From: an uncultured Pelagibacteraceae bacterium
Lineage (GTDB): Bacteria; Pseudomonadota; Alphaproteobacteria; Pelagibacterales; Pelagibacteraceae
Direction: 5' to 3'
DNA: 64,000 nt
Assembly (NCBI GenBank): GCA_902617415.1
Contig: CACMWQ010000002.1
Span: 98,884-162,883, forward strand
The notes beneath the pieces are model-generated. The model was not told the origin of the DNA. It did no database searches and saw only the letters and a list, made by a program, of their open reading frames with translations. This document shows positions 11,975 to 50,803 of the stretch, piece by piece. A program made the translations under genes and the position numbers. The first letter of the stretch is position 1. Each line of letters begins with the position of its first letter.

Positions 11975-12030
11975 TGGTGCCCTCGGCCAGACTCGAACTG
12001 GCACTCCCAAAAGGGCAAGGATTTTAAGTC
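11975..12030 (-). pseudogene. 3' 56 nt of a second tRNA-Leu(UAA) gene (copy B), severed in the anticodon loop; left prophage junction
   Basis: It matches 55 of the 56 bases at 9964-10019 (single C/T difference in the T-stem). The match ends at TTTTAAGTC (12022-12030), which is the anticodon loop read on the plus strand. Confidence 0.9.
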
Positions 12031-12089
12031 TACCGACAAAATTAAAGTTAAGCTATAGCTCACTTTTACTACGCCTCCTGGTTCCTGTC

Positions 12090-12125
12090 TGCACAATTGC
12101 ACACACAATGCACAATTTATGCACA
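12090..12125 (-). repeat. Four copies of TGTGCA (read on the minus strand) in the attL-side phage arm; candidate integrase arm-type sites
   Basis: TGCACA occurs at 12090-12095, 12098-12103, 12109-12114 and 12120-12125, between the core and the int stop codon. Related doublets occur at 17086-17099 and 50629-50646. Confidence 0.45.
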
Positions 12126-12134
12126 CTCAAATTA

Positions 12135-13172
12135 CTAACTTTTACCTCCAGAAACAACTTTTAAATTGTTATGAAGGTTATCCAACTTCTTAGCTAAATC
12201 AATCTTAGCTTTAGGAAAGAAATGAATATATCTTTTTGCCATTGGTGAATTGTAAGACCAACCCATCCAATCGCAAACTTCCATATACGTTGCACCAGCT
12301 TCAGCAAGTCTTGATGCACAAGTATGTCTACATGAATGAAAGATGAAGTCTTTATTTTCTGACTGACCAAGAGCATGCCTAACCATATCCCATTTGTAGG
12401 TTATCTTTCTGTAGCTAGTGTCAAAGTAAGTCTTCATGTTACTTCTTCTCATAAGTATTTCTTTAGTTCTTGCAGTAATACCAACTGATGAAGTTGTGTC
12501 TGTTTTACTTCTATACACATAGCTAGTCCAACCATACTGAGACTTCAGCATGTCTTTAGGTGCAAGTTTAATTAACTCGTTAGCACGAGCACCAGTATCT
12601 ATTAGTACAGTTACAAAATCTTCTAAGTCGTTAAACCCATAGGTTCTGCACTGTTGATAAATAGCTTCCTCTTGTTCGTAACTATATGTAAACAGTCTTG
12701 TTAGCTTTTCTTTTTTTCTAGGTATTTTAAGTAAATGCTTTGGAGCTAAACCCATTCCAAGAGCATATCTAAACACCTTGTTTAAGCAACAAGCCCTTCT
12801 GTTGTTAGTTGCTGTATCCTCAAACTGAGCCGCAAACTTATACCACTCAGCTTTATCTATTTCTCTAAGCAACTTATCTTTACCCCAGAAATTGTAGAAC
12901 ATAGTAAAATAATACTTTTGTTTTTTACCATGGTCTGTATCTAACCAACCACTTTCTGGGTCGTTCCATGTAGCTTCACAAGCTTGTTGTAAAGTTACTT
13001 CTGACCTACTGATAGTAAGACCAATTTCTTTACCATCAATAAGTGCTTTCTTTAGTTTGTCTTCAGCAAGAACAGCTTCATCATAAGTATTAACAGTGCA
13101 ACCTTTTCTGCCTCTGCCTTTTACTTGTATCTGAACTCTGAACTTACCATTACTTGTCTTTTGTATACCCAT
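12135..13172 (-). CDS. int: Tyrosine recombinase / phage integrase
   Basis: Catalytic blocks TGARANEL (Arg), HSCRHTCASRL (His-x-x-Arg) and AKRYIH (Tyr). I trimmed the start to ATG 13172 (MGIQKTSNGKFRVQ), which is preceded by AGGAGG 9 nt upstream. The gene is adjacent to the att junction. Confidence 0.93.
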   Translation of the reverse strand: MGIQKTSNGKFRVQIQVKGRGRKGCTVNTYDEAVLAEDKLKKALIDGKEIGLTISRSEVTLQQACEATWNDPESGWLDTDHGKKQKYYFTMFYNFWGKDKLLREIDKAEWYKFAAQFEDTATNNRRACCLNKVFRYALGMGLAPKHLLKIPRKKEKLTRLFTYSYEQEEAIYQQCRTYGFNDLEDFVTVLIDTGARANELIKLAPKDMLKSQYGWTSYVYRSKTDTTSSVGITARTKEILMRRSNMKTYFDTSYRKITYKWDMVRHALGQSENKDFIFHSCRHTCASRLAEAGATYMEVCDWMGWSYNSPMAKRYIHFFPKAKIDLAKKLDNLHNNLKVVSGGKS

Positions 13173-13173
13173 T

Positions 13174-13521
13174 TTATATAGCCTCCTTTGCTTTAGGTAT
13201 GTCATTGAATAGGCTCTTAAATTTATGTCCAACAGTAGTAAGAATAATATCTTTTTGTCTTCTATCTTCACTGCTTTCAGATAATTTAATGAGACCTAAG
13301 TTTACTAATACTGCATTGTTTCTCGATAGAGACGCAGAATTTAACAGCTTGCCATACAATTCATAAAATTTTTTATTTGTATTTTCTACTGTTAATGTTC
13401 CCTCTTTCAGATGACACATGCAGTGAAATAACATCAAGGTATGTAGGTATAACCCATTGTCCATATTCTTATTTTTACCCAACTTATAGAACCTTGACGC
13501 AACTTCTCCGAAGTTACTCAT
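13174..13521 (-). CDS. MarR-like winged-helix DNA-binding protein (candidate lysogeny regulator or recombination directionality factor)
   Basis: 115 aa from ATG 13521, which has AAGGAG 7 nt upstream. SASLSRNNAVLVNLGLIKLSESSEDRRQKDIILTTVG fits the MarR recognition helix plus DRR wing. Its stop lies 1 nt before the int ATG. Confidence 0.55.
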   Translation of the reverse strand: MSNFGEVASRFYKLGKNKNMDNGLYLHTLMLFHCMCHLKEGTLTVENTNKKFYELYGKLLNSASLSRNNAVLVNLGLIKLSESSEDRRQKDIILTTVGHKFKSLFNDIPKAKEAI

Positions 13522-13651
13522 ATTGTGCTCCTTGTTAATGTTAGGCAAGAATATACAGGTGTTGTTATTATAAACGCCTCTACCACCAAAAGAGGCTAAC
13601 CCATTATTTTTTATGTTTATCACTTGCATTAATAAATCTGTATCAGAAATG

Positions 13652-16015: not shown

Positions 16016-16573
16016 TTAATAATTCCTAAAAATGTGTGTTTGATAGCCTGGTGCGTCTGCTGTCCAGTAGTCCATTTCCAAATCTCTAGCAAAGCCTTCA
16101 TAATCAAAATAGCTTGCTATATGGTCTGGAATTTCCATTGTTTCGTCTGCTGTCTGGTCTGCGTATTCTCTGAAGTTGTCAAAGGTACCTACAAAAGCTT
16201 CCTCAATGCTTTCTTTCAGGTTGTCTGCTTCAAAGTCTGTAAAGTTCTCAAGATAACCATGAACTATTGATGGCTCAAAGTCTTCAAGAGTTCTTGCAAC
16301 CTCGCAAACCTTCTCCAGGTCTGGATACTCTCCCAAGTCTGGAAAGTTGTTATAGTCGTGAATTGCCCATTCTTCTGGGTCTCCAACTGGTGAACCTTTT
16401 AGAACTTCTTGTATTTGTTCTTCTAGTTCTTCCTTTGTTGATTTAGGTACAATCCAAGCACCATGCAGATAGCCTGAATTATACGCAGATAAACAAGCAA
16501 CCCAAATTGATGGCTTGTCTACTTCTTGGCCTTTGTCATCTTTGACAATAGCCTGCGTTGTCGTTGTTGTCAT
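16016..16573 (-). CDS. ardA: ArdA-family antirestriction protein (DNA mimic)
   Basis: 185 aa and strongly acidic. IWVACLSAYNSGYLHGAWI and EEWAIHDYNNF match the ArdA N-terminal signature as I recall it. It is located in the early region. Confidence 0.75.
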   Translation of the reverse strand: MTTTTTQAIVKDDKGQEVDKPSIWVACLSAYNSGYLHGAWIVPKSTKEELEEQIQEVLKGSPVGDPEEWAIHDYNNFPDLGEYPDLEKVCEVARTLEDFEPSIVHGYLENFTDFEADNLKESIEEAFVGTFDNFREYADQTADETMEIPDHIASYFDYEGFARDLEMDYWTADAPGYQTHIFRNY

Positions 16574-17508: not shown

Positions 17509-19176
17509 TTACATCCATTTATTACTTGGTCTTGGAAAGAATGGTTGAGTGTCCATAAAGTTCTCTAATTCATCCTTCAGAAGCTCCTCACGTCTCTTTT
17601 TAGCGGCATTGTGTTGGTCTTGTGATAGTTGCTCTACCCAATACCTACAAGCCATTGATAGAACGTCTAAGCGGTCATCTATAGCTAAAGAACCTTTTAT
17701 TCTACCTATTCTACTCATCTGGTAAAACAATTGAAACCTCAAAGCTTTTTCAACAGAATACATTTCATTACTGCTGTTGTAGTCTTTGTGCACAACATTA
17801 GTATCAATAATTAATCTATGCTGTTGCATCAAAGGTTCTAAGGTATCAATAATTCTTTTCTCTTTTGCTTCTTGATGTCTTATTTCTTCAATGGTGACTG
17901 GATATGTTTTTGTTACAAAAGGTAATAGTAGTTTTGTAAACATACCACCACCATAGTTTTCCTCTACGAGGATTAAGTTAGCTTCCTGTTGTTTAGCTAT
18001 GTTAGCAATAGTCTGAAGTGTCTTATCAGTGTAACCGCCAATAAGTCCGCCTGCATCTGTGATGTAGACATTACCATTCAGCATTTTTGCACAGCAATAA
18101 CTGGTTTCGTTTTCACCTCTCCCACTAGGGTCAATAGCTAATACAGAGCCTTGATAATCTAACCAATCACCTTGAATTTGCATTGGCCGATAATAAGCAT
18201 CCGAATGTAAACCTACACAAGGTAACTCCTCATGTTTAAGTTCTGGACTAGAAGCCCATATTACTTTCTCAGGAGCAGTACTAGGATTTAGTGACATTAC
18301 AACTAAATCAGATAATTTAAGTGGATATTTGTCCTCATCACTAATTGATGTATCCAACATAAATTGTAGATTAAAACCAGAAGCTCCATAACTTAAATGT
18401 CTTTTAGCTAGGTCTTCTTCATCAAATCTTTCTGCATCTGTAGGTTTTCCAATAATATCTTTACTCCATGTATTTCTAATAAATGGAGCTAAAGTTTTAC
18501 CGAAGTTATTTAATTGTTTTTCGTTAGGATACCTGGCTGTCCATATTCTTTGCTTATAACCTCTTGTAGGTAATAAGTTATATAAAGACATTTCAGTCTG
18601 CATTGTGCCTAAAAATATTATGCGACCTTGCGGTTTCAAGATACTCTCGAACTCTTTTACTTGTTCAGAAAGTTTATCTCTCATACCCATGGTTGCAGAA
18701 TTATTTGCACTTTCGACATCATCTGCAATAACAAGGTCGCTACGACTACCTGTTAATTGCCCTGTAATTCCCAGAGACTTCACACTTGGTGCATGTGATG
18801 CACGAGCAGGTTTTACGTCAAAGCTTACCTTAGACTGTCTTTGGTCTTCCCTAGGCCTAAGATGAGCTAAAACATCAATCTCATTAATTAATCGTAGCGT
18901 AAATGTAGAAAAATCATCTGCTCTATTTTTAGATGCAGATACTACTAATATATTTAACTGAGGATTTAATAACAGTTGGTGACATACATAAGCTGATGTA
19001 ATCCAACTTTTACCTACTCCTCTGAATGCATTAATAATTAATCGTTTATCTTTAGACTGTAAGTAATTAGCAATATCGTATTGTATTGGCGTTGGCCTTG
19101 GTAGTGCTAAATGTTTCCAGACTAAATATAAAAAATTTCTAAAATCTTTTAACTTAGTTGGTATTTTTGTTTCCAT
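17509..19176 (-). CDS. Terminase large subunit (T7 gp19-like)
   Basis: 555 aa. Walker A-like FRGVGKSW and Walker B-like LVIADDVES. It is the last gene of the late array, as in T7. Confidence 0.9.
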   Translation of the reverse strand: METKIPTKLKDFRNFLYLVWKHLALPRPTPIQYDIANYLQSKDKRLIINAFRGVGKSWITSAYVCHQLLLNPQLNILVVSASKNRADDFSTFTLRLINEIDVLAHLRPREDQRQSKVSFDVKPARASHAPSVKSLGITGQLTGSRSDLVIADDVESANNSATMGMRDKLSEQVKEFESILKPQGRIIFLGTMQTEMSLYNLLPTRGYKQRIWTARYPNEKQLNNFGKTLAPFIRNTWSKDIIGKPTDAERFDEEDLAKRHLSYGASGFNLQFMLDTSISDEDKYPLKLSDLVVMSLNPSTAPEKVIWASSPELKHEELPCVGLHSDAYYRPMQIQGDWLDYQGSVLAIDPSGRGENETSYCCAKMLNGNVYITDAGGLIGGYTDKTLQTIANIAKQQEANLILVEENYGGGMFTKLLLPFVTKTYPVTIEEIRHQEAKEKRIIDTLEPLMQQHRLIIDTNVVHKDYNSSNEMYSVEKALRFQLFYQMSRIGRIKGSLAIDDRLDVLSMACRYWVEQLSQDQHNAAKKRREELLKDELENFMDTQPFFPRPSNKWM

Positions 19177-21941: not shown

Positions 21942-22970
21942 TTATCTCGCTGTTGTTGGTATATTGTTAGTTCCTACTAATGGTGCTTCGGCAAATGCTA
22001 GGTAAAAATATGTTGCACCAGAGCCACCGCCAAAATCATTTGAAGTTGTTCTTACTTTAAAACCATTTGATAAAATATCAAAAGTCTCATCACTACCTTC
22101 AGCGTTATTTAAGTTTGGTCTTAAATCTCTTTGAGCAGGATTGTAACCAAGTCTTTTGTTATCAATAAGCATCCAATTTCCAGTACTATCAACTCTTTTA
22201 TTTAAAATCCATGCAGGTTTAAAACCTGTATAAATAAATGCTCCATCAGCATTACCATTACCTTGATAAGTGCCTGAACTACTAAAACCAGTTTTGTTTG
22301 CAAAACAATAAAAAACTGCTGTGCCAGTTCCAGCACTTCCGCCATGTCCTGAACCAGTAACTGTAACTGTTGTTGCATCTGCTGATGAAATTCTTGAGCC
22401 TTCTGAAGATGAGCCTGAAGTTGAGTTTAAAAATAAAGAGTTTCCAGATGTAATTCCTTTATAATAAATTCTCCAGTTTGCTACATCATCTGTACGTTTG
22501 TTAAAAATTACATCAGGCTCTACTCCAAGACCATGACCAAAAGTATTAGAATTTAAATTACTTACTAAGGATATTGAAAAACCTGATGTTGTATTTGCTG
22601 ATGTGTATGTCGTATTTACAGCTCCATCAGTATTTGAAGAACCTTGACCATTTGCTTTCCAATTCCATGAAACGTATGTTAAACCACTTTTATTATAGTC
22701 AGATACATTTCCATCTAAAGTAAAACCATCACTATCAAATGATGTAAAATAAGTGTGAGTTGTTTCAGCCGCAGTGCTATTGCTTGTTATATTTTTGTTA
22801 TAACCTCTTACAGCATCAGCTAGTTTGTGGTCTGTTGTGCCACCTCTTTGTTTCATCCATACCCAATCTGGTTGAAATCCAACTCCAGTAACAGACTGGG
22901 ATGAGTTAGAACCTGAATAAGTAACAGTATTAAAATAATCTGTAGATTTGTTAATTGTTGTATAAGCCAT
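21942..22970 (-). CDS. Putative tail-fibre-associated structural protein (342 aa)
   Basis: Ser/Thr/Gly/Asn-rich and embedded between fibre-like genes. Contains the motif GFQPDWVWMKQRGG. No firm family assignment. Confidence 0.4.
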   Translation of the reverse strand: MAYTTINKSTDYFNTVTYSGSNSSQSVTGVGFQPDWVWMKQRGGTTDHKLADAVRGYNKNITSNSTAAETTHTYFTSFDSDGFTLDGNVSDYNKSGLTYVSWNWKANGQGSSNTDGAVNTTYTSANTTSGFSISLVSNLNSNTFGHGLGVEPDVIFNKRTDDVANWRIYYKGITSGNSLFLNSTSGSSSEGSRISSADATTVTVTGSGHGGSAGTGTAVFYCFANKTGFSSSGTYQGNGNADGAFIYTGFKPAWILNKRVDSTGNWMLIDNKRLGYNPAQRDLRPNLNNAEGSDETFDILSNGFKVRTTSNDFGGGSGATYFYLAFAEAPLVGTNNIPTTAR

Positions 22971-22982
22971 TTTTTATTCCTA

Positions 22983-24326
22983 TTATTGATTTAGATTTTT
23001 AGTACACCAAGCTAAATAACCAGTTGGTGGTTGATATTTGAAAGTTCCAAAACCTTCACTGTCTGTGTAAGTAGTGCCTGTTAATTGCGTGTTTGCAAAT
23101 GCACCATTACCAAAATTAAATTCTGTTCTGTTATCATTATTACTTACTGAATACCAATTTACTGAAGGTGTTATCCAATGACCTCTTGATTTTTTAACAC
23201 TACAATTTGTAAAGCCTGATAAACTTAAAGCATTTACATTAGATATAACTGTTCCATTTTTATAAGCTGTAACAGTATCACCATCAATATCTATGGCCAT
23301 ACCTATATAGTCACCAGTTGTAAAAGTTGTACCTAACGCAGTAGCATTAGGGTCGTATGCGTTAACACCATTAACACCACCTCTTATATATCCATCTGTT
23401 GAAATATTAAATCCACTATAATAAGTATCAGCACCATTTCTAGGATTATCAGCACTATCCCAACCTAGTCTTATGGGTCTACCAGATGTAGTAGCTTGAA
23501 TATAAGCCTCATAATACCATTTACCACTTTTAGCCGCTAAACCTGCATTTGCTCTCATCCAAGCAGAACCATTGCCTCTTACTCTAGTATTAGCGTAATC
23601 TATATCAAGAGTTCCACTGCCAAAACTTTGCAAAGGATTTATAGTTGCAAAATTATTAGAAGGATTATCTTTTGTTGATGTAAGTGTACCTGTATCAACT
23701 GCCCAGTTATTTGTATTAGGTGATTGGTCTGTTAATGAATTGCTATCTTTTAAAATGAAAAAACCATTGTTTCCATAGGTAACACTAGGACTAGCATTTA
23801 TTTTCCACTCACCAGTTGTTGCATCAGTAGAACCAAATGATGATGCTTGATAAGTATAACCATCTGTAAAGTGTATATGGCTCATACATCCATCAAATTG
23901 ATTACCACCTCCATTATCACCAATGTAGTGAGCAACTGCACTGTTCATAGAATTTGTTACATCTTGTGAAGCATGAGTTGCAGTATCAAAATTTGTAACT
24001 CTTGTGCCATTTACATAAATTTTAATCCTATCTGAATTTGTGCCTAAGGTGCTATCATAAGCGAAAACAATGTGCATCCACGCATTACTATCTCTATAAA
24101 CAGCACTTGTTTCATACTGCCATATCATAGAGCCACTATTTAAATAAAAGAAATAAAGTTTATTATTACTATTAAATCTAAAAGTTACATTTACTGAACC
24201 TGCATTATTTGCATTAAATAATACTTGGTCACCACCAAGTTTTGCTCTTTTTACCCAAGCACTCCAAGTAAATTTTTTTCCGTCTGTTGGTGTTCCTAAA
24301 GTTTTTAATAATCTTGTACCAGCCAT
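22983..24326 (-). CDS. Receptor-binding-like protein with LamG and SPRY domains
   Basis: 447 aa. The LamG-like block is FTWSAWVKRA...WMHIVFAYDS...IKIYVNGTRV. The SPRY-like block is SGKWYYEAYIQ...IRLGWDS...GDYIGMAIDIDGDTVTAYKNG. Confidence 0.6.
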   Translation of the reverse strand: MAGTRLLKTLGTPTDGKKFTWSAWVKRAKLGGDQVLFNANNAGSVNVTFRFNSNNKLYFFYLNSGSMIWQYETSAVYRDSNAWMHIVFAYDSTLGTNSDRIKIYVNGTRVTNFDTATHASQDVTNSMNSAVAHYIGDNGGGNQFDGCMSHIHFTDGYTYQASSFGSTDATTGEWKINASPSVTYGNNGFFILKDSNSLTDQSPNTNNWAVDTGTLTSTKDNPSNNFATINPLQSFGSGTLDIDYANTRVRGNGSAWMRANAGLAAKSGKWYYEAYIQATTSGRPIRLGWDSADNPRNGADTYYSGFNISTDGYIRGGVNGVNAYDPNATALGTTFTTGDYIGMAIDIDGDTVTAYKNGTVISNVNALSLSGFTNCSVKKSRGHWITPSVNWYSVSNNDNRTEFNFGNGAFANTQLTGTTYTDSEGFGTFKYQPPTGYLAWCTKNLNQ

Positions 24327-37222: not shown

Positions 37223-37223
37223 T

Positions 37224-37457
37224 TTAGCAATTCCAAGCTCGTAGTGCTTTATTAATTCTACTGTTTGGGTCTCTTGCTGTTTTTGCTGAAGTAAGTTTCT
37301 TCTTCATGCCCTTCATTCTAGCACAGAATGAGGCACGTCTTTTGTTACCTACTTTTTTACTAGGTGCTTTTAGATTAGCACCAGTCTTTCTTTTAAAATA
37401 TCTTCTTCCAGCCGCATTCAATCCACCTGATGGATTTTGATACTTTTTAGCTACCAT
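37224..37457 (-). CDS. Small highly basic protein (77 aa)
   Basis: Lys/Arg-rich (GRRYFKRKTGANLKAPSKKVGNKRRASFCARMKGMKKK). Its ATG overlaps the upstream stop. Confidence 0.55.
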   Translation of the reverse strand: MVAKKYQNPSGGLNAAGRRYFKRKTGANLKAPSKKVGNKRRASFCARMKGMKKKLTSAKTARDPNSRINKALRAWNC

Positions 37458-37822
37458 TATTTTTTACCTCTAATCTTATTGACTGTAGATAAACCAAAGC
37501 TTCCTGAGTATACAATTAGAACAGCCCACCAAAATTCTTGTGGTGCATTCTTTAATATCTCAAAACCCTTCTCCATCCATGGCTGTGTATGTGGCCAAAA
37601 TATTGCTAAAAATATTAATGTAATTTTTATAGTTAATACTTCATCCTTAATAGAACCTTTAGAACTTCGTATTTGTTCTATACTTACATTAGCTTCTGCT
37701 TCTATCTCCTTTGCTCTAATGACTTTCTTCTTCTCAATAGAATGATTAATTGCTGATACTGTTTTGTCAGCGATAATCCTAGTGAGTGGATTTTTCATTA
37801 GAGGCAAAAGAAAGTTTAACAT
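37457..37822 (-). CDS. Membrane protein, possible holin (resembles the 3-TM GTA/phage holin layout)
   Basis: 121 aa. A charged N-terminal half is followed by the hydrophobic segments LTIKITLIFLAIFWP and FWWAVLIVYSGSFGL. Confidence 0.35.
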   Translation of the reverse strand: MLNFLLPLMKNPLTRIIADKTVSAINHSIEKKKVIRAKEIEAEANVSIEQIRSSKGSIKDEVLTIKITLIFLAIFWPHTQPWMEKGFEILKNAPQEFWWAVLIVYSGSFGLSTVNKIRGKK

Positions 37823-37971
37823 TATCTTTTTCTAGCTGTTTTAGCGGCTCGTCTAAAGTTAGCCGCAGTAGGAGCTCCTTTGCTCCCTGGCTTTCTCATT
37901 CTCTCTTTAGAGCCTGCTTTTATTCTTTTTCTCTTAGCATGAATATTAGCGTATAATCCTCTTTTAGCCAT
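37822..37971 (-). CDS. 49-aa highly basic micro-protein (MAKRGLYANIHAKRKRIKAGSKERMRKPGSKGAPTAANFRRAAKTARKR)
   Basis: Translated by hand. TAATG 1-nt overlaps occur at both ends. It is below the ORF-track size cut-off. Confidence 0.45.
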   Translation of the reverse strand: MAKRGLYANIHAKRKRIKAGSKERMRKPGSKGAPTAANFRRAAKTARKR

Positions 37972-38081
37972 TATTTCATACCTCTAGCTTTTTTGATTTT
38001 TCTCTTTAATGAAGCTGGCAAAGTCTTTTGCTTCTTCGTTAAAGGTTTTTTCTTTTTCATTTTTCCATAATGTGATGGCAT
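37971..38081 (-). CDS. 36-aa highly basic micro-protein (MPSHYGKMKKKKPLTKKQKTLPASLKRKIKKARGMK)
   Basis: Translated by hand. GGAAGGAG lies 5 nt upstream of ATG 38081. The stop overlaps the next ATG. Confidence 0.45.
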   Translation of the reverse strand: MPSHYGKMKKKKPLTKKQKTLPASLKRKIKKARGMK

Positions 38082-38112
38082 ATTTACTCCTTCCCACCTG
38101 AGTAGGTGTTAT

Positions 38113-38865
38113 TTAGATTGCGTTACTTAATTTAACTTTGTTCTCTACATCTTGTCTGAATGCACTATCAGTAGAGTATCTTGGGTCGTTGATGTCTCGT
38201 AACATTTCACCAACAGACCTGTATCCCACGTTGCTATCTGCATTATTTCCAGAGAATAAATTAGGCTCTGCATTATTAGATGAATACTTAGCCTGGACAC
38301 CAGCTATTGCTAACTGTGCCTGTTCTAAAGTACCTGTATCAATAGTGCTATTAAAAGCCTTTATTTCATCTGAAGATAAATTCTTTGAAGCCCAGTCTAA
38401 CATTTCAGCATACTGTTCTTTACCTCCAACAGTAGCCATGACTGAGTTTGCTCTCCTGTCTGCTAAAGCAGTTTGACCATCTATGTAAGCGTCTACTACT
38501 TCTCTGTTCAAGCCAAGCTTTTCTAATTCACCATAACTTGTATCAGTAAGTTTTCCTTCTTTAGCATACTCATCATAAAATTTATCTAACTGACCTGGTT
38601 TATTTTCAGGTTCTTTTGGTTCCTGAATTTTCATATCAGTTACTTCTTCTTTTACTTCTGCTTTTTGTGATAATTTATTTTCTAGTGCTCCATAAGCTTT
38701 TGCTAATTCTTCTGCATTAGAAAATTTATCTGGAAGCCATGAAGGTCTTTCTTCATTAGAAGTCTCCTGTGTCTGAGCTTCTGGTTTTTCTTCCTGTTGT
38801 TTTGCTTGTTCCTCAAGAGTTGGAGCATTCTCCTGCTCTTGGGTGATTTCTACTTTATCAACCAT
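38113..38865 (-). CDS. Scaffolding protein (T7 gp9-like)
   Basis: 250 aa, acidic and Gln/Glu-rich, located between the portal and capsid modules. Confidence 0.7.
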   Translation of the reverse strand: MVDKVEITQEQENAPTLEEQAKQQEEKPEAQTQETSNEERPSWLPDKFSNAEELAKAYGALENKLSQKAEVKEEVTDMKIQEPKEPENKPGQLDKFYDEYAKEGKLTDTSYGELEKLGLNREVVDAYIDGQTALADRRANSVMATVGGKEQYAEMLDWASKNLSSDEIKAFNSTIDTGTLEQAQLAIAGVQAKYSSNNAEPNLFSGNNADSNVGYRSVGEMLRDINDPRYSTDSAFRQDVENKVKLSNAI

Positions 38866-38880
38866 TTTGTATTACTCCTA

Positions 38881-40467
38881 TTATTGGTTATTGATTATTG
38901 TTTCTCCTAAAGTCTTAGGAGGTATGTTCCCTGCAATTTTCTCACCTGCGTTCAACAATGATTGTTGTTGAGCTTGTTGTTGCATCTGCTCTTGTTGTGC
39001 CTGAGCTTCTGCTTGTAGGTCTTCTTCAGTTCTGATTAGACCTTTAGTTTCAATACCATCTGCTGTAGCTAATCTTTTTATTGCTTCAGTTACATTGACG
39101 TATTGAGCTATACTTTCACCGCCTAACGTACCAGCGAGTGTCTGTAAAAATTGTATTAATTTATTTCTATCTGTAGTTCTTCCTAATGCTTCGATACCTG
39201 TAATAACTTTTGGAAATACAATACCTTTAGGAAGTTGTGGTAATTTTTTAGTTTTATTTAATAAAGCTAATTTTCTATTTACTAATGGTAACTGAAACTC
39301 TTGTGATAGAACTCCATAGATACCACCAAGACTATCTTGTAATTCTTGTGCAGTCATTCTTACTTCTTCTGCTGTAGTTCTTTCACTATCTCTAATTACT
39401 GATGCATTTAATAAAAATGCGTATGATAATCTTTGTTCGATTTTAGACATTGTTTCTTGTGCAACTCTAAAATCAGGAAACTTACCTACTTGTAATACTG
39501 ATACATCATTAGCTGAACCTTCAATGATTGCACCATTTTCGCTTTCTGCTAATGCTTTTGCTCTAGTAGTTCCATTAGGAGCTACCATAAATAATGTCTT
39601 AGCTGATGCAGAAGAACCTTCTACAATAGCTTTTGTTAAACCTTCTAAACTAATTAAATCACCTAGATATTCTTCAACATAACTTCTTCCATAATTTTCT
39701 GCTGATATTCTAACCATTCTTAATGGTATGTATGGTGACTGGTCTAACTTATATTTACCAAAGCTTTCCTCAAGCTTGATACCTTTTACTTCTTGGTGAA
39801 CCATAAAGTGGTCTGGCTTTCTTTTTATACAAGTATATAAATCACAAACACTATCTTCTTTAGTTTCACCTTGTTGTGATAATACAGCTTCTCTGATGTA
39901 ATCAGGTAAAGCATTATAATGAATACTTTCTTTTGTAATTATTTCTAAGACATTACCCATTGGGTCTCTTTCAATTACAAACTGTGATAATGGGAAAACT
40001 CTTAATCCAGTTTTATCTACAAATAATAAAGCATTACCTGCAACAATAAGATGTTTTAATGCTTCAAATACTACTACTCTATCATTAGACATTTCTATGT
40101 CATCCATGACAGCTTTTTCTATTTGTACTAAACCACTATCTATTTCTGTTTTTAAATTCTGGTCTTCTTCTATTTCTTTAACTGCAAAGTTATCAATTGC
40201 TAATCTAAAAAATGGAGCATTGGGTGGTAACAGTGATAATAATAATTTAGATGCTAAGTTGTTTACACCTCTAGCTCCAATACCTTGATAGGTAGTTTCA
40301 AAATCTTCTGCACCTGTGTAACCATCTTGTGGTATGAGTGTAGGAATAGTTAATTCAGAACAAGAACGAGCCCTCTCTAAATAGAGTTCACGTTCCATTG
40401 CTTTGTTATTATATCTACTCTCTAATGACTGTTCTGAGTTCATCCCAGTGTCATTATAAGTTGCCAT
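38881..40467 (-). CDS. Portal (head-tail connector, T7 gp8-like)
   Basis: 528 aa. Size and position upstream of the scaffold and capsid genes. The C-terminus has a Gln-rich tail. Confidence 0.8.
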   Translation of the reverse strand: MATYNDTGMNSEQSLESRYNNKAMERELYLERARSCSELTIPTLIPQDGYTGAEDFETTYQGIGARGVNNLASKLLLSLLPPNAPFFRLAIDNFAVKEIEEDQNLKTEIDSGLVQIEKAVMDDIEMSNDRVVVFEALKHLIVAGNALLFVDKTGLRVFPLSQFVIERDPMGNVLEIITKESIHYNALPDYIREAVLSQQGETKEDSVCDLYTCIKRKPDHFMVHQEVKGIKLEESFGKYKLDQSPYIPLRMVRISAENYGRSYVEEYLGDLISLEGLTKAIVEGSSASAKTLFMVAPNGTTRAKALAESENGAIIEGSANDVSVLQVGKFPDFRVAQETMSKIEQRLSYAFLLNASVIRDSERTTAEEVRMTAQELQDSLGGIYGVLSQEFQLPLVNRKLALLNKTKKLPQLPKGIVFPKVITGIEALGRTTDRNKLIQFLQTLAGTLGGESIAQYVNVTEAIKRLATADGIETKGLIRTEEDLQAEAQAQQEQMQQQAQQQSLLNAGEKIAGNIPPKTLGETIINNQ

Positions 40468-42626: not shown

Positions 42627-42712
42627 GCCCTTGTGGTGAAATCGGTAGACACATTGGACTTAAAATCCAAGCCCTTTTGGGAGTGCCAGTTCGAGTCTGG
42701 CCAAGGGCACCA
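42627..42712 (+). tRNA. Phage-encoded tRNA-Leu (anticodon TAA), complete, opposite strand to all phage CDS
   Basis: GCCCTTGTGGTGAAATCGGTAGACACATTGGACTTAAAATCCAAGCCCTTTTGGGAGTGCCAGTTCGAGTCTGGCCAAGGGCACCA. It is 86 nt, the same length as host copy A. It differs at 8 positions; 6 form 3 compensatory base-pair swaps, one converts a G-U pair to A-U, and one lies in the D-loop. Confidence 0.9.
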
Positions 42713-42716
42713 ACGC

Positions 42717-44483
42717 TTAGTGAGTGTCAGCCCAGGTCTTTCCTATTTTATATTCTGCATCTAAAGGACATCTAAAATTAAAATAAGCACCTGCATCTTT
42801 TATTGATTGAACTGCAATCTTACCTACCTCATCAGCATAATCAGATTTACACTGAAGCTGTAACTCATCATGCACATGAGCAACCATAGAACAGATATTT
42901 TTATCATAATTTTTTTCCTTAAGTTTGTTATGTAGAATTACAGTAGCCATCTTTATAATAAGTGCTCCACTACTTTGTATTAATAAATTTAAACTTGAAT
43001 GTTCAGACCTTGGTATTAATTTTCTTTTGTCTAAACCTAATAAATATTTTTGATTTTTTGCTTTTACTAAAACATTATCTCTTAATAATTTTAGTGCTGG
43101 TATTGTTTCAAATAATTTTGTTTTTATTCTTCTCCCCTCGTAGGAGGTTTTATCAACAATTGCACCAAGCCTTGTATCTCCGATACCATAGATGACACCA
43201 TAAATGACCCTCTTTGCCAAATCTCTCGTTGGTAAACCAATCTGTTTCTGATTTTTGGAATGAACATCACCATCAAGAAGTTCCCTCGCAAAATTACCTT
43301 TATCGAATGCACCGAGATAATGAGCAAGACAACGAAGTTCAAGACCACTAGCGTCACAGCCAATAAGAACAAAACCATCAGGAACAGTAAAAAGAGAACG
43401 ACATTCTTTACCATAAGGAACACCAACACTGGGAGTTTGTGCAACATTTGGTCTTTGGTGAGTACACCTTCCAGTGTTTGCACCATTCGTGATAACGCTT
43501 CCATAAATTTTTCCATCTTGTTGTAATTTTAACCAGGCATTATTTCCTTCTGCTAACATGCCTATTCTTTTAGCTATTAAAAAATGTTCTGATAATAATT
43601 TTGCTTCAGGATATTCTAATGTAGATAATATACTTTCATCTACTTTAGGTTTACCATCAGGAGTAAAGTCTTTTGGTTTCCATCCTTTGTTCATCAACCT
43701 ATTACTAATGTGGTCTCTTGAGTTAGGATTGAATTGTACTTCTTTATATTTTTTTACAGGTACACCTTTTTTATAACCTTTACTTTTATTATCTCTCTTA
43801 GGAATAAATGTACCTACATATTGTTTCCAATTTGGGAAGGTCGAAACTAGAGATTTCTCTAGCTCCAACCTTCTGTTTGCAAGTGAGGCATACAGCTTCT
43901 TTGCAGAAGCCACATCAAATGTAAACCCATGTGCTTCTTGCAGATATATACATCTGGCAAAGTCGTGCTCTAGCTTTATTGCATCTGGAGAATAATTTTG
44001 TTTTTGTATTAATTTGTAGAACTCGTGTGTAACTTCTACATCTTGTTCACAATACTTTTGCATTTCAGGAGACCATTGTGAGAAGTCACCTGTCTTTATA
44101 AAATCACCTTTTCTTAATCCTAATCTATAACCCCAGGCTTCAAGTGAATGTCTTCCTGCGAGCTGTAGCGGCAAGTCTTTACGTTGGTAATCTAATTCTT
44201 TTCTATTAGTCCATATCAGTCTGCTTACTAATAGCGTATCAAATACTTCAGCTTTAATATCATATTGTCTTGGAAACAATTTTTCTAAAACTGGTAAATC
44301 AAATTTTAAAATATTATGGCCAACTAATAAGCTAGCACCATTTAACAACATAAGACCTCTACCTATTTTATCTCCATGATAAGAATAGACCTGATTAGTC
44401 TCTATGTTTTTGATTACAATTGAATGAACTACAGTAGCATCTGATAAGAAACCATTAGTTTCTATATCAAATACAAGTTTCAT
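42717..44483 (-). CDS. Family A DNA polymerase with 3'-5' exonuclease (T7 gp5-like)
   Basis: 588 aa. Exo I is VFDIETNG and Exo II is HNILKFDLPVL. Pol motif A is DASGLELRCLAHY, motif B is RDLAKRVIYGVIYG and motif C is HVHDELQ. Confidence 0.93.
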   Translation of the reverse strand: MKLVFDIETNGFLSDATVVHSIVIKNIETNQVYSYHGDKIGRGLMLLNGASLLVGHNILKFDLPVLEKLFPRQYDIKAEVFDTLLVSRLIWTNRKELDYQRKDLPLQLAGRHSLEAWGYRLGLRKGDFIKTGDFSQWSPEMQKYCEQDVEVTHEFYKLIQKQNYSPDAIKLEHDFARCIYLQEAHGFTFDVASAKKLYASLANRRLELEKSLVSTFPNWKQYVGTFIPKRDNKSKGYKKGVPVKKYKEVQFNPNSRDHISNRLMNKGWKPKDFTPDGKPKVDESILSTLEYPEAKLLSEHFLIAKRIGMLAEGNNAWLKLQQDGKIYGSVITNGANTGRCTHQRPNVAQTPSVGVPYGKECRSLFTVPDGFVLIGCDASGLELRCLAHYLGAFDKGNFARELLDGDVHSKNQKQIGLPTRDLAKRVIYGVIYGIGDTRLGAIVDKTSYEGRRIKTKLFETIPALKLLRDNVLVKAKNQKYLLGLDKRKLIPRSEHSSLNLLIQSSGALIIKMATVILHNKLKEKNYDKNICSMVAHVHDELQLQCKSDYADEVGKIAVQSIKDAGAYFNFRCPLDAEYKIGKTWADTH

Positions 44484-44484: not shown

Positions 44485-44760
44485 TTAATGCATTACAATT
44501 ATTTTTATGTTTAAGATTGTTGGTATTACAGGAGCTACTGCTAACAGTGCTTCCTCAATAATATCTTTTGCTCTTTTACTATGAACAAAAAGAATAGGAT
44601 TTACATTTGGATACTTAATAACCAAGTGTAATAAATTTAATAATTTTTTTAGTGATGAATAAATAAATATTTTATCGTCATCCTGTAAGTGCTCAAAGTC
44701 CTGGCACTCCTCCAGGTACTCACGAAGTACAGCGTCTAATCTTTTATCACTCTTGGTCAT
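44485..44760 (-). CDS. Hypothetical protein (about 91 aa from MTKSDKRL; track ORF extends to 44823)
   Basis: ORF between the helicase and the DNA polymerase. I trimmed the start to reduce overlap with the helicase. Confidence 0.4.
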   Translation of the reverse strand: MTKSDKRLDAVLREYLEECQDFEHLQDDDKIFIYSSLKKLLNLLHLVIKYPNVNPILFVHSKRAKDIIEEALLAVAPVIPTILNIKIIVMH

Positions 44761-46339
44761 CTGAAAAATCACCTTCAGACAATCTCCCAGTTTCCCTGTT
44801 GTAGTGAAGCGAGCAAGCGACACCTGTATCTCCTGTGTATCTATTTTTTAGAACTCTTATTGTTAGTATATCTTTTGTTTCTTCATCCTGTTGTGACCTC
44901 TCTAAGCCGCAACAAATATCAGTAAGCTGTGCAAGTCCATGACTTCCCCTAAGATGACTTAGTGAAGTTATAGCTCCTTCTTCATGTCCAGTTTTATCTG
45001 GCAATCGTCTAAGATGGCATACAAGTATTAAGCCAAAGTTTAATTCTTCAACTAAACTTCTTAACTTAGTCATTGTATAATCTATCAATTTTCTTTCGTC
45101 TCCTTCAATTCCAGAGACAACCATATTGATATGGTCTAATACTACATAATCACAATCACATCCTCTAACTAAAAATCTAATCTTTGACATTAGGTTTTCA
45201 CTATCAGTAGAACCAAAGTGTTTATGAAAATATGTTTTACCTTGGATTTTATTCCAAGAACTTTTTAAAGTTTCTTCATCAAATTGTTTTCTTATATCTT
45301 CTTCGTGTATCTTAGAGTTTAAATCTATACTCATCAAACCTCTAACACTTCTAGCTACACTTTCTTCTAATGCTATGTAACCAACATTCTTACCTTTAGT
45401 AATTAAATCATAAGCAATCTCTCTACATACTTGTGACTTACCTGTACCTGAACCTGCTGTGAATAAAACTATTTCACCTTTACGAATACCTTTTGTTTTT
45501 TTATTTAATCCTTCCCAGATATATGGAGTACATTCTTTACTATCATCTTGAATAACTAAATCCCAAGTATCAGCTCCAGCGATAATACCTTCAGGAGTAT
45601 ATGGTTTTGCATTCCATATATAATGAATAATATCTTTACCTCTGTTGGACACCAACATATCGTTGGCATCCTTCATAGGTAACTTAGAGATAAGAGCTTT
45701 TTTTGGACTGAATAATTGTGCACATTCGATTGAAGCTTGATTACCAGCTTCATCATTATCGAACATAAGAACTACGTTTTGAAAACTTTCTAAATATTCT
45801 AATTCTTTTTTTATAAATTTTTTTGCTGACTTAGCACCTGATGGTACTGATACTACTGGCCACTTGTTACCTTGTACTTTAGAAACAGACATTGCATCTA
45901 TCTCACCTTCAGTAATAGTAATCATCTTTTGATTACCCTTCCATTTATGTTTACCAAATAAACCCACCTCATTCATGTCTCCTAACCAGATAAAATCTTT
46001 GTTAGGAAACCGAATGTGTTGGGCAACAAGGAGGTAGTTTGTATTGTAATATGGAGCTATCTGTACTGGTGAACCATTGTATTCACCAACCTGATAGTTA
46101 TAAAATTTGCAAGTATCAAAATCTATTTGTCGTTTTGATAACGCCTGCACTTGACCTTCTATCATATCTGATTTTTCTTTATTGTTATTAAATTCATTTA
46201 CTTCACCAACTGCTGGTTCTCTGTACTCACAACCAAAACAATATGCATGTCCATCAGAGTACCTGGCTAGGTTATCTCTTGAATTGCAACTTGGACAAGG
46301 TTCGTGTCTTACAAAATTACTCTGTGTATCCTTCATCAC
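44747..46339 (-). CDS. Bifunctional primase-helicase (T7 gp4-like)
   Basis: 530 aa. Zinc finger CPSCNS...CFGC, TOPRIM ITEGEIDAMS and DnaB-type Walker A GSGTGKS. Confidence 0.92.
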   Translation of the reverse strand: MMKDTQSNFVRHEPCPSCNSRDNLARYSDGHAYCFGCEYREPAVGEVNEFNNNKEKSDMIEGQVQALSKRQIDFDTCKFYNYQVGEYNGSPVQIAPYYNTNYLLVAQHIRFPNKDFIWLGDMNEVGLFGKHKWKGNQKMITITEGEIDAMSVSKVQGNKWPVVSVPSGAKSAKKFIKKELEYLESFQNVVLMFDNDEAGNQASIECAQLFSPKKALISKLPMKDANDMLVSNRGKDIIHYIWNAKPYTPEGIIAGADTWDLVIQDDSKECTPYIWEGLNKKTKGIRKGEIVLFTAGSGTGKSQVCREIAYDLITKGKNVGYIALEESVARSVRGLMSIDLNSKIHEEDIRKQFDEETLKSSWNKIQGKTYFHKHFGSTDSENLMSKIRFLVRGCDCDYVVLDHINMVVSGIEGDERKLIDYTMTKLRSLVEELNFGLILVCHLRRLPDKTGHEEGAITSLSHLRGSHGLAQLTDICCGLERSQQDEETKDILTIRVLKNRYTGDTGVACSLHYNRETGRLSEGDFSDDQE

Positions 46340-47881: not shown

Positions 47882-49615
47882 TTAGCTACAAAAATAATAA
47901 CTACCAAGGACATTCTTCAACTCCAGGCTTCCTTGCTCAGGTAATGCAGGTATTTTATGTCTTAAATGTTTAGGTATCTGATATTCAACTTCCTTAAGAA
48001 AATCCTCAAGTAAATTTTTTCCATCAAATATTTCTACAAATGCTTCACGCAATGCAATGTTCATTGTTGAAACATCTGTTGCTAAACATCCAAAGCTATC
48101 ATGCACACAAGCAAAGTTTTCTATATTGTAATCACTAGCTTTGCACACAGCCTTTTGTAATAAAGCACCATCAAGTGAATGCACAAAGTTTGGTGCAATA
48201 CTATTTGCTACTCTACGTTTATCTATTTTATTTGTCTCAACAGCTATAGATGTTTTTCTTATATCAGGTGTCCACTTACCAGTCTTAGGTCTAAATATTT
48301 TTTCACCCATATAAGTATTAACTCTTTTAGTTTCTAATACTGGACATACCATTTGCACTATAGCATTTGTTGGTGTTGTCCACACAACAGGTAAACCATT
48401 TTCAGAAATTAATTTAGATACATCTTGCAACCATTTCATTGCAACCTTTGCAGATTTAATAACTCTATCTAAAGCTTTCCATACTAACTTAGATAAGTAT
48501 GCAGTACCTTTAAATATATTAGGAACTCCAGGCTTAGGATTTCTGTCAGTAGAAAAAGGTATATCAACACCTTCTTCTTCCATTTCTTCTAAGTGTTCCT
48601 GGATATATTTTCTACAAGAGAATTGTGTAAGACCATATACAATACACATTGTAACTTTCTTACAGGTTTTTCTAGTAATACCATAGTCTAACCATATCTC
48701 TTTTAACAAACTATCTTCTTGTTCTTTTAATAGGTTTTCAGTTTCTACTGCAACTTCACCATACACATCAGCAACTCTATTACCTGGTACAAGATTAACT
48801 GCATTACCACCTACTTCATCTCTTAATAAACCAGAGAATATTTGTAGGCCTGAGTTAGTACAATCAGAATAACAAATAACATTAGTTACAAAATTAAGAG
48901 ACTTGCCTGATTTACAGAAGTCGTTCCATTCAAAACAGAATGCAAGAAACTGTACTGGTTCAGAACAATTAGCCCAAAATTCATAATGACTATGTGGGTC
49001 TTCTGCTGTTGCACATATAGCTTCTTCATTATCTACAACCCATTTAACTCTATTATCTAATGTATCTTTATCATGGCCATACATATTAGCTCCATGAATA
49101 GATAACTTTCTTACAGCTCCATAACCTTCAATTGGTTTACCATTAGCAAATAATAATAAACCTTTTGCTAAATCACATTCTTGATAGTTAAGTCCTTCAG
49201 GTACACAATATATTCTTTGTCTATTGTCATACTGTAATGGAAAATAAAACTCTAAAAAATTTTCATAAGTATCTGCAACAGAAAATATTTTTTCTATATG
49301 TAAAAACTTACTGTCAATTGTAGAGTTGTAATCATGGACTGACCTTTTTCTATGACTGTATTGTTTTCTTGCTTCTTCATTAGTAGCAATATCGTGTGGT
49401 TTAATTGGGAGCTCCAGCTTGTATGGCGGCAACCCTGCAATAGGTAACTTCTTATGATACAAAGTCTTCATTACCTGTAGCGTTCTTGTATTTATTTTAA
49501 ATGGAGTATTCTGTAATGTATTAATACACTTATAATACTCTGGCATTTCGTGTGCTCTGTTTGCCATTTCTTCTAGGTAAGCCCTAGTTGCTCTTTTGAC
49601 TATTGGATAGTTCAT
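47882..49615 (-). CDS. Single-subunit RNA polymerase, C-terminal fragment (thumb-palm-fingers; T7 RNAP residues about 299 to the end)
   Basis: 577 aa. YPIVKRATRAYL...MPEYYKCINTLQNTPFKIN aligns to T7 LALVRTHSKKAL...MPEVYKAINIAQNTAWKIN. DCTNSGLQIFSGLLRDEVGGNAVNL, ITRKTCKKVTMCIVYG and VHDSFG are catalytic blocks. It has its own GAGG SD 7 nt upstream of the ATG. Confidence 0.9.
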   Translation of the reverse strand: MNYPIVKRATRAYLEEMANRAHEMPEYYKCINTLQNTPFKINTRTLQVMKTLYHKKLPIAGLPPYKLELPIKPHDIATNEEARKQYSHRKRSVHDYNSTIDSKFLHIEKIFSVADTYENFLEFYFPLQYDNRQRIYCVPEGLNYQECDLAKGLLLFANGKPIEGYGAVRKLSIHGANMYGHDKDTLDNRVKWVVDNEEAICATAEDPHSHYEFWANCSEPVQFLAFCFEWNDFCKSGKSLNFVTNVICYSDCTNSGLQIFSGLLRDEVGGNAVNLVPGNRVADVYGEVAVETENLLKEQEDSLLKEIWLDYGITRKTCKKVTMCIVYGLTQFSCRKYIQEHLEEMEEEGVDIPFSTDRNPKPGVPNIFKGTAYLSKLVWKALDRVIKSAKVAMKWLQDVSKLISENGLPVVWTTPTNAIVQMVCPVLETKRVNTYMGEKIFRPKTGKWTPDIRKTSIAVETNKIDKRRVANSIAPNFVHSLDGALLQKAVCKASDYNIENFACVHDSFGCLATDVSTMNIALREAFVEIFDGKNLLEDFLKEVEYQIPKHLRHKIPALPEQGSLELKNVLGSYYFCS

Positions 49616-50591
49616 TATTTACCTCATTTGTTTGTGTTGATTGTTTAGTAGGTTCTCCTAAAGTGGCACCTAATTCAGCAGGTCTTAAATCCTTGATATA
49701 ATAACCACCAGAATATGGGTTCAGTTCCCATTCTTTCGGTTTAACAACCATAGGTTCTCTAAAAGGTTTTAAAATTTCTGCATGAATTTTTTTCTTCTCA
49801 ATCCAGTCAATAGTTTTTTGTGTAGCCTGGACATAGACAATTGACTTGCCTTTTACTGCATATTGTTTTGTGAGTTTTATAAAGCCAGTGGACTTGGCTA
49901 ATAGTTCAAGAAGTAGTTTACCAAGTTTAACCTTTTCTTCTTTAGACCAACCTGAGTATTCCAGGCTATGTTTATTCATAGCATAATTAAATACTCTACG
50001 TTTATGTCTGTAGTTATTCTTAGTCTTTAACCATTCTTTTGTTTGGGAATAAGTTCGATTATCTGTCTCTTTGAAATATAATAATCTAGCCTCATCTTCA
50101 ATTGCTGATGCTATTTTAAGCACAGCTTTTGTTTGTGTGGATGAAACAGTGATACTATCAAGCACAGCTTTTAATGTTATGAATGCTATACCTGACCACC
50201 TCTCTGAATTATCCTTATCTACTTCCTGAATAGGAATACACTTAGTTAATAACTTAGCTTCGCTTGCAAATCTTTTAGTATGACCATCAAATGCTTCTAT
50301 AAAATATTTATTTATAGCTTCACACATAGGCTCTAATCCTGACTGCATTAGTGCCTGACCATAGATAGTTGTACTTTCATTGGTCTCTCTTGGCTTACCA
50401 GTTTTCTCTGCAATTTTTGCTCTGGATTTGTATATATTTTTATGGAACCTTTTTATGCCACGTTTGATGTTGTTAAGTTCCAGTTGTTTTTCAGCCTCTA
50501 TTTTATTGTGTAGAGTTGAAGGCTTGTCGTGCACACTCTTGTCATTTTTAAGTATGCCAAATTTCTCTAGTATTGACTTATCTATTTCCAT
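49584..50591 (-). CDS. Single-subunit RNA polymerase, N-terminal-domain fragment
   Basis: 335 aa. PMVVKPKEWELNPYSGGYYIKDLRP aligns to T7 PMLIPPKPWTGITGGGYWANGRRP. A 31-aa hydrophilic tail without a T7 counterpart follows, then the stop. GAGG SD 4 nt upstream of the ATG. Confidence 0.85.
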   Translation of the reverse strand: MEIDKSILEKFGILKNDKSVHDKPSTLHNKIEAEKQLELNNIKRGIKRFHKNIYKSRAKIAEKTGKPRETNESTTIYGQALMQSGLEPMCEAINKYFIEAFDGHTKRFASEAKLLTKCIPIQEVDKDNSERWSGIAFITLKAVLDSITVSSTQTKAVLKIASAIEDEARLLYFKETDNRTYSQTKEWLKTKNNYRHKRRVFNYAMNKHSLEYSGWSKEEKVKLGKLLLELLAKSTGFIKLTKQYAVKGKSIVYVQATQKTIDWIEKKKIHAEILKPFREPMVVKPKEWELNPYSGGYYIKDLRPAELGATLGEPTKQSTQTNEVNNELSNSQKSN

Positions 50592-50628
50592 AGTACCTCA
50601 TTAATGTTTATTTTTTGTTCGTAGTTTC

Positions 50629-50646
50629 TGTGCACGCATGTGCACG
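50629..50646 (+). repeat. Two TGTGCACG repeats in the attR-side phage arm
   Basis: Copies at 50629-50636 and 50639-50646, spaced 10 bp. They belong to the same TGTGCA family as 12090-12125 and 17086-17099. Confidence 0.45.
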
Positions 50647-50651
50647 TCTAC

Positions 50652-50732
50652 TACGCCAGCGTAACGAACACATTTAATGTTCGCAACAGTTTAATTCGCT
50701 AGTAATGTAAGGTATTCTACTACGCTAGTGTA
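50652..50732. repeat. Two degenerate copies of the TACGCTAGCGTA palindrome upstream of the RNAP gene
   Basis: TACGCCAGCGTA at 50652-50663 and TACGCTAGTGTA at 50721-50732, each with one mismatch. A CGAACA/TGTTCG inverted repeat lies between them. Confidence 0.45.
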
Positions 50733-50764
50733 GATTTATCGGAGGCGTAGAATGTGTCGATAGT

Positions 50765-50803
50765 TTTTAAGTCCTTTGTGTCTACCAATTTCACCACGAG
50801 GGC
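50765..50803 (-). pseudogene. 5' 39 nt of tRNA-Leu(UAA) copy B; right prophage junction
   Basis: Identical (39 of 39) to 10011-10049 of copy A. It starts with the core TTTTAAGTC (50765-50773). The adjacent phage DNA has no T-arm or acceptor sequence. Confidence 0.9.

Follow-up and report, generated by a model that had tools for sequence, protein, structure and literature searches.

The stretch analysed here (the window) comprises 64,000 nucleotides (nt) of contig CACMWQ010000002.1 from an uncultured Pelagibacteraceae bacterium and carries a T7-like prophage seated in a host tRNA-Leu(UAA) gene. Six tRNAs were predicted in the window by ARAGORN, including tRNA-Leu(taa) genes at 9964-10049 on the minus strand and at 42627-42712 on the plus strand. 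The first is an intact host gene beside NAD kinase (NADK), designated copy A (Rfam, 55.4 bits; also aligned), and the second lies inside the prophage. A further host gene, copy B, is present only as two minus-strand pieces: its 3' 56 nt, running from the anticodon loop to the CCA end, occupy 11975-12030, and its 5' 39 nt, from the acceptor stem to the anticodon loop, occupy 50765-50803. Both pieces were assigned by direct reading and alignment, and each is identical to the corresponding part of an intact gene in a contig lacking the element (L001; retrieved contigs are identified by such handles). The 38,734 bp between them (12031-50764) carry protein genes on the minus strand throughout. The sequence-only reading of this DNA had proposed a prophage that cuts tRNA-Leu(UAA) inside the anticodon loop, and the two fragments bear this out. 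They overlap only in TTTTAAGTC, found at 12022-12030 and 50765-50773; in the tRNA sense this 9-nt core reads GACTTAAAA and corresponds to the last 2 nt of the anticodon stem plus the 7-nt loop. Alignment likewise confirmed that nothing beyond these 9 nt is shared and that the fragments sum to a complete gene (56+39-9 = 86 nt), and an intact 86-nt gene is found in empty-site alleles.

Neither end of the prophage rebuilds the tRNA. In the ARAGORN analysis of the window, no tRNA was called at 11975-12030 or 50765-50803, and an Rfam search of the whole window at E<=1 returned the same six tRNAs, with no match, even partial, at either junction. The junction-spanning 86-mers formed no cloverleaf (z = +0.2 and +0.7); this fold was formed by copy A, the empty-site gene and the phage tRNA. 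By ARAGORN, Rfam, alignment and the fold test, neither junction has an adjoining tRNA or partial tRNA on its phage side. The earlier claim that neither end is rebuilt, and its forecast that ARAGORN would find copy A and the phage copy with no gene at the junctions, were therefore both correct. The copy B gene is inactivated: it is split and restored at neither end. The same reading had called the target truly inactivated, which is right for that copy but not for the function of the tRNA, as discussed below.

The undisturbed locus was recovered by exact-protein look-ups of the two host genes that flank the insertion, which gave more than 15 contigs; their sources are metagenomes, Red Sea samples among them, and single-cell genomes. 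The two genes, one encoding a 410-amino acid (aa) protein (50870-52102, minus strand) and the other a 389-aa GT87-like membrane protein (10789-11958, minus strand; Pfam), are adjacent in L001, L002, L005, L011, and L012. Between them in all five lies an intact 86-nt tRNA-Leu(UAA), directly beside the 410-aa gene, whose sequence is that of the two window fragments merged at the 9-nt core; alignment to element-free relatives had been suggested as the means of recovering the bacterial attachment site (attB), and the gene sits exactly there. In all, the intact 86-nt gene occupies this place in more than 10 near-identical contigs that lack the prophage. For ~3 kb to either side of the empty sites, the flanks match the window at 99.6-100% identity, and the insertion is therefore polymorphic within one population. 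Copy A is also found beside NAD kinase in all of these genomes and, since they carry it together with an intact copy B, the lineage normally has two tRNA-Leu(UAA) genes. Copies A and B differ by 1 nt in the T-stem (alignment). At this position copy B has A, as do the phage tRNAs, and copy A has G.

The phage attachment site (attP) was found by retrieving loci with the integrase (Int) and DNA polymerase (DNApol) and by using a shorter invariant pattern. In the integrated element the int and RNA polymerase (RNAP) genes lie at opposite ends, so that the order in gene sense is int, att junction, RNAP, and the attP predicted for the excised circle contains …TTTGTCGGTAGACTTAAAAACTATCGACAC…. Its nearest match is in L067 (DNApol 97% identical), where the predicted site is contiguous with one substitution. 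Integrases 69-80% identical to that of the window are encoded by 20 IMG/VR contigs, and 18 of the 20 have TTTGTCGGTA-GACTTAAAA-(A/G)CT…ACGCCTCCGA ~107 nt downstream of int. This corresponds to the left phage end of the window, the core and the right phage end, all contiguous and located in the int-RNAP gap. Scanning metagenomes with an invariant 19-mer added 19 attP forms and three attL junctions. The predicted attP was thus recovered in its architecture (in the 18 of 20 relatives and the 19 metagenome contigs) and almost to the letter in L067, but not exactly in IMG/VR. Altogether, more than 35 free-phage contigs have this site uninterrupted. The core GACTTAAAA is present in all four of attB, attP, attL, and attR.

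The phage DNA flanking the core is organized as two arms. The integrase-proximal arm (12031-12134, minus strand) is conserved by alignment in the attP of the relatives and contains the core-adjacent half-site TGTCGGTAG at 12030-12038, a GGAGGCGTAG box at 12069-12078, and four TGTGCA repeats at 12090-12125. The RNAP-proximal arm (50592-50764, minus strand; sequence reading and alignment) contains the half-site TGTCGATAG at 50755-50763, an inverted GGAGGCGTAG box at 50741-50750, two GCGTAGTAGA repeats (50647-50656 and 50716-50725), and two TGTGCACG repeats (50629-50646). The half-sites are symmetric about the core (TGTCGGTAG / CTATCGACA, with TGTCGATAG in the second arm) and are kept in relatives. 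The same is true of the arm boxes: the 64-kb window has just two copies of GGAGGCGTAG, one in each arm and in inverted orientation, and two of GCGTAGTAGA. Half-sites and arm repeats alike are putative binding sites for Int. Because these inverted phage half-sites (TGTCGGTAG / CTATCGACA), and no tRNA sequence, flank the attP core, the host gene ends up as a 39-nt 5' piece and a 56-nt 3' piece. The phage and host tRNAs are 92-100% identical, which might have allowed homologous recombination between them in place of integrase action at attP. That route would have left two full hybrid tRNAs at the ends, which are not seen, and the int-RNAP gap that holds the junctions is 8 kb away from the phage tRNA, itself intact and internal. 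The anatomy of the junctions refutes recombination through the phage tRNA, and the chance that it produced this insertion is negligible.

The prophage encodes a complete T7-like core set, identified with Pfam and PHROG: RNAP, primase/helicase, DNApol A, portal, capsid, tail tube, internal virion proteins, and terminase. The tyrosine integrase (12135-13172; all coordinates in this paragraph are on the minus strand) matches PF00589 (E=5e-12) and phrog_1, and the motifs TGAR, HSCRHT, and RYIH, which correspond to the R...HxxR...Y catalytic domain, can be read in its translation. Its open reading frame (ORF) extends to a GTG at 13271; homologues align from Met34, an exact-protein look-up of the 378-aa ORF gave no match, and the GTG start is probably wrong. 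An anti-restriction protein homologue (16016-16573; phrog_2059) is followed by the T7-type terminase large subunit (17509-19176; Pfam, PHROG) and by tail-fibre and virion structural genes (21942-26644; PHROG); nucleotide similarity to isolated pelagiphages is confined to this last region. The structural module (26673-40467; PHROG) includes an internal virion protein (26673-30341), tail tubular protein B (32980-35352), the major capsid protein (36144-37160), and the portal (38881-40467). Beyond it lie genes for DNApol A (42717-44483), a T7-type primase/helicase (44747-46339), and the single-subunit RNAP (all three Pfam, PHROG). The last is encoded by two overlapping genes (47882-50591), one for an N-terminal part of 335 aa (49584-50591), whose look-up matched only the 1-kb contig L020, and one for a catalytic part of 577 aa (47882-49615) with its own GAGG ribosome-binding site and ATG.

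Two ORFs for one polymerase could look like a frameshifted gene in a defective, fixed prophage remnant, and several metagenome contigs break at the tRNA, as might be expected if the window were an assembly chimera joined at shared tRNA-like sequence. However, two RNAP genes are kept in all the free-phage relatives examined (the 20 IMG/VR contigs and KT997847.1, the closest named genome), which together with the ribosome-binding site of the second gene rules out a frameshift; the arrangement reads as a natural two-subunit form of the single-subunit-type enzyme and not as an error. All T7-like modules are present, the junctions are exactly the attL and attR products of the observed attB and the observed attP, the near-identical flanks of the empty-site genomes point to a recent polymorphic insertion, and independent lysogen junctions exist elsewhere. 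A remnant or a chimera is accordingly very improbable.

Five further lysogen junctions with the same 9-nt core were found (L052, L120, L129, L132, and L138), and in none of them is the tRNA completed by phage sequence. L129 and L132 (Tara) and L138 (GOS) are the attL junctions from the 19-mer scan. L052 has a different phage in the homologous host locus, inserted at the identical nucleotide. L120, a single amplified genome of Ca. Pelagibacter communis, is split at 11140-11210 and L138, a GOS read, at 610-680; in both, the split gene is the NAD-kinase-adjacent tRNA-Leu(UAA), the counterpart of the window's intact copy A. The window's lineage differs from these two in that an extra copy, B, took the insertion. 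No second tRNA-Leu copy was seen within 6 kb of the split gene in L120 or L138, which argues that the phage-borne tRNA can matter.

That tRNA (42627-42712, plus strand) is a complete, intronless tRNA-Leu(UAA), antisense to all phage genes. It was called by ARAGORN and, with 61.2 bits against RF00005, outscores host copy A (55.4 bits); its fold is a canonical cloverleaf that includes a long variable arm. Of its 86 nt, 7 are not those of host copy B, and six of these seven differences make up three compensatory pair changes, two of them in the anticodon stem (phage TTGGA/TCCAA, host AAGGA/TCCTT). A tRNA-Leu(taa) is found at the same place, antisense and directly after DNApol, in KT997847.1 and ~30 IMG/VR relatives, and a tRNA antisense to all phage genes is found in three lineages. 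UUA makes up 58-61% of the Leu codons in host and phage ORFs. Because the phage carries a full, well-folding tRNA-Leu(UAA) and copy A stands 1.9 kb from the split gene, tRNA function has very probably not been lost, and the phage tRNA would be expressed and used in the lysogen.

Two other views of this tRNA were weighed. In one, the insertion is an unusual and uncompensated knockout, the phage tRNA is irrelevant and the host loses capacity. The failure to rebuild either junction would fit such a loss, as would the lack of a predicted promoter-like site for the phage tRNA. It is improbable, given that the phage tRNA is a high-scoring cloverleaf maintained by compensatory changes at one position across a wide clade, that copy A is intact, that in other hosts it is the NADK-adjacent tRNA-Leu which related phages split, and that four isolated pelagiphages have been documented with this arrangement. 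In the other, the phage tRNA mainly serves lytic growth, by reading the dominant Leu codon or by evading host defences that target tRNAs, and copy A alone compensates here. UUA accounts for 60% of phage Leu codons, copy A would suffice, and phage tRNAs have reportedly been proposed as counter-defence in one study. A role in the lysogen is compatible with a lytic one, however; the tRNA isotype equals the integration target in every described case, and antisense placement in three lineages fits transcription independent of the phage programme. A mainly lytic role is possible but doubtful.

The favoured explanation, held with considerable confidence, is that the window contains a complete, probably excision-competent 38.7-kb T7-like temperate pelagiphage, integrated by its tyrosine integrase in the anticodon loop of the second tRNA-Leu(UAA), and that tRNA supply is kept by copy A and presumably by the phage tRNA. 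Integration would join an attP in the non-coding gap between int and the RNAP gene to an attB formed by the anticodon stem-loop of that second host gene. Strand exchange would occur inside the 9-bp identity GACTTAAAA, within which we infer the exact cleavage positions. Copy A and the phage tRNA would then supply the tRNA-Leu(UAA) that reads ~60% of Leu codons, the phage gene being placed antisense between the DNApol gene and the next gene, where its transcription could be independent of the phage's own units. Several points weigh against this explanation. The exact 33-nt predicted attP had 0 matches in IMG/VR; a simple sigma-70 scan upstream of the phage tRNA gave nothing above shuffled sequences; with copy A intact, the phage tRNA is not strictly needed in this genome; and the indications of excision competence are only the intact att sites, the intact integrase and the polymorphism in the population.

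The host DNA next to the insertion has features of its own. The two host tRNA-Leu(UAA) genes (9964-12030) are direct repeats over the 86-nt gene only, with unrelated flanks. Between them lies a cassette of low GC content (10101-11958, mixed strands; GC 0.20-0.25) in which a GT2 glycosyltransferase (10101-10799, plus strand; Pfam) accompanies the GT87-like gene; the arrangement is the same in the empty-site contigs. Bracketed by tRNA copies, this cassette of 20-25% GC resembles an island bounded by a duplicated att target. In L004 a scaffold gap of 10 N (~2430-2450) falls within a few nt of the anticodon-loop core, as do the contig ends of L009, L014, L016, and L017, all from metagenome assemblies. 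These breaks were considered as a sign of coexisting lysogens and non-lysogens and were not relied on, as k-mer effects of the duplicated tRNA could give the same breaks.

Relatives whose DNApol is 76-86% identical have a phage tRNA-Leu(UAA) with an insertion of 191-196 nt between U34 and A35, which ARAGORN calls as an intron of this length at position 36. Such loci include L025 (19378-19656), L026 (9706-9984), L035 (10663-10941), L037 (17236-17516), L039 (8872-9149), and ~17 more (L046-L066). The insertion in L025, L026, L035, and L037 scores 51-54 bits against RF00028, for which the gathering score is 50. It has U at -1, a terminal G, and a P1 in which ACUU pairs with GAGU. Among 10 variants, compensatory changes are seen in 15 of the 57 predicted pairs; the type is the classical CUU/a…g/AAAA tRNA-Leu(UAA) group I intron. 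Its position is exactly inside the 9-nt att core, after GACTT and before AAAA. The spliced tRNA is identical to host copy B at 80-86 of 86 positions, and the anticodon arm is always host-identical. The window's own phage tRNA has no intron, and it was compared with other intronless copies (L018 14653-14738, L019 2787-2872, L041, L042, L044, L068, and L084). Every intronless copy has a compensated anticodon stem (TTGGA/TCCAA, TCGGA/TCCGT, or CACGA/TCGTG) where the host has AAGGA/TCCTT, and every intron-bearing copy keeps the host stem; no phage copy was seen with both an uninterrupted loop and the host stem.

Because the replacement tRNA holds the attB core, inverted and ~8 kb from attP, Int could invert the RNAP-DNApol block. 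The stem pattern could reflect avoidance of self-recognition by Int, or else a constraint from P1/P10 pairing. A speculative reading, to which we give rather low odds, is that there are two escapes from self-recombination: a predicted self-splicing intron that masks the core in the DNA (~22 close relatives), or a compensated anticodon stem, the presumed site of the Int half-sites, combined with an intact loop (the window clade and three or four other intronless lineages). If true, this would give a group I intron a new adaptive role, the masking of a recombination site, and would also be a rare case of such an intron in a phage tRNA gene; according to a 2014 review, all phage group I introns known then were in protein-coding genes. 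That the replacement tRNA of related phages has precisely its att core interrupted by a group I intron is the more promising lead from this locus.

Similar sequences occur in the Agrobacterium jumbo phage Atu_ph07 (MF403008.1, 112890-113249) and in a 735-kb uncultured phage (LR756501.1, 190256-190527). Both stretches are 73-76% identical to the intron-containing tRNA-Leu over >90% of its length and are annotated as a hypothetical protein or not at all. A different attP layout was seen in three more distant relatives (DNApol ~57%), in which a sense-strand tRNA-Leu(taa) is followed 8 nt later by GACTTAAAATC, so that the tRNA lies beside the core (L072 1046-1160, L073 407-520, and L074 998-1110).

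Among named phages, the closest genome is KT997847.1 (Deep1-GF2-KM23-C739, Chosvirus KM23C739; L018), from the deep Mediterranean, which is known as a free genome and not from integration. It has the same gene order as the window, two RNAP coding sequences (CDSs), an antisense tRNA-Leu(taa) right after DNApol, and GACTTAAAATC in its int-RNAP gap. An equivalent of the anti-restriction gene is also annotated. Amino acid identities to the window are 45% for Int, 65% for DNApol, and 70% for the portal, with proteins overall in the range 44-70%. A megablast search with 20 kb did not return it, and nucleotide identity is below the genus level of Chosvirus; the window phage is related to Chosvirus but probably belongs to another genus. 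The KT997847.1 capsid gene contains two group I introns (22075-22255 and 22784-22964; Rfam 78 and 77 bits), and its parts are annotated as separate capsid CDS fragments.

Phage integrases that use the anticodon loop of a tRNA gene are known from the class of HP1, P22, and 16-3: a tyrosine integrase makes the crossover in the 7-nt loop, flanked by the symmetric stem, and the 3' half is duplicated so that the gene is regenerated. The attP of these phages is said to hold the 3' part of the tRNA, in the sublocation classes associated with Williams 2002. The window resembles this class in its tyrosine integrase and loop crossover and differs in that its attP has no tRNA half and the gene is not restored. 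Nearer comparisons are found among the pelagiphages. HTVC105P, HTVC109P, and the MedDCM-OCT-S35-C6-type phages share the tRNA-Leu(TAA) target and the int-attP-RNAP layout, but their attP has a 37-nt match to the 5' half of the tRNA and the gene is rebuilt, unlike in the window. The PNP1 prophage (Morris et al.) was rejected for comparison, being of HTVC010P type. The tRNA-anchored islands described in "Pelagibacter, resolved" are at Phe, His, and Arg tRNAs and not at the tRNA-Leu site.

The failure to restore the tRNA, presented as exceptional in the sequence-only reading, is not exceptional among SAR11 phages. Zhao et al. (bioRxiv 10.1101/410191; Environ Microbiol 2019) described four pelagiphages that split a host tRNA without complementation, HTVC019P (tRNA-Cys), HTVC025P (tRNA-Leu(TAG)), and HTVC119P and HTVC200P (both tRNA-Leu(TAA)), with the phage tRNA "likely used instead"; for the last two, the integration mechanism was supported by PCR and sequencing. 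The core of the window was also called unusually short. Its identity is indeed only 9 bp, but this is only slightly below the 11-46 bp range reported in that study, which also describes the int-attP-RNAP layout for HTVC019P-type pelagiphages (10.1101/410191). HTVC019P and HTVC025P follow the same logic of splitting without rebuilding and bring their own tRNA, but use another target tRNA and another integrase lineage. The window phage matches the HTVC019P-type phages in lifestyle but is of another lineage, not close to those isolates at genus level, nucleotide similarity being confined to the tail fibre.

HTVC119P and HTVC200P are close functional parallels. Like the window phage, they are T7-like podoviruses with the order int, attP, RNAP, an attB in the middle of tRNA-Leu(TAA), an uncomplemented split, and an antisense phage tRNA-Leu(TAA); the attP of HTVC200P contains AGACTTAAAATCC, and its antisense tRNA-Leu lies upstream of int. 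They are distant in sequence, with amino acid identities to the window of 24-26% for Int, 34% for RNAP, and 45% for DNApol. They also have the tRNA upstream of int, a one-gene RNAP, and a 12-nt core, where the window has the tRNA after DNApol, a two-gene RNAP, and a 9-nt core. A further difference is that the integration in the window is a stable prophage of a natural genome and lies in the second of two tRNA-Leu copies.

The strategy by which a phage splits a host tRNA and brings its own is thus already documented for SAR11 phages, and the window reveals no new mechanism. What is new is a different phage lineage, a minimal 9-bp core, a complete natural prophage with both junctions, and a duplicated target gene. 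The locus is a clean natural example for which both junctions, the empty site, and the free attP were all recovered, and it shows a T7-like prophage in the most abundant marine bacterium, SAR11, in whose genomes integrated prophages of this type are rarely seen. A strategy shown in culture is confirmed here in wild populations (Red Sea, Tara, GOS, and single-cell genomes) and extended to a second phage lineage.

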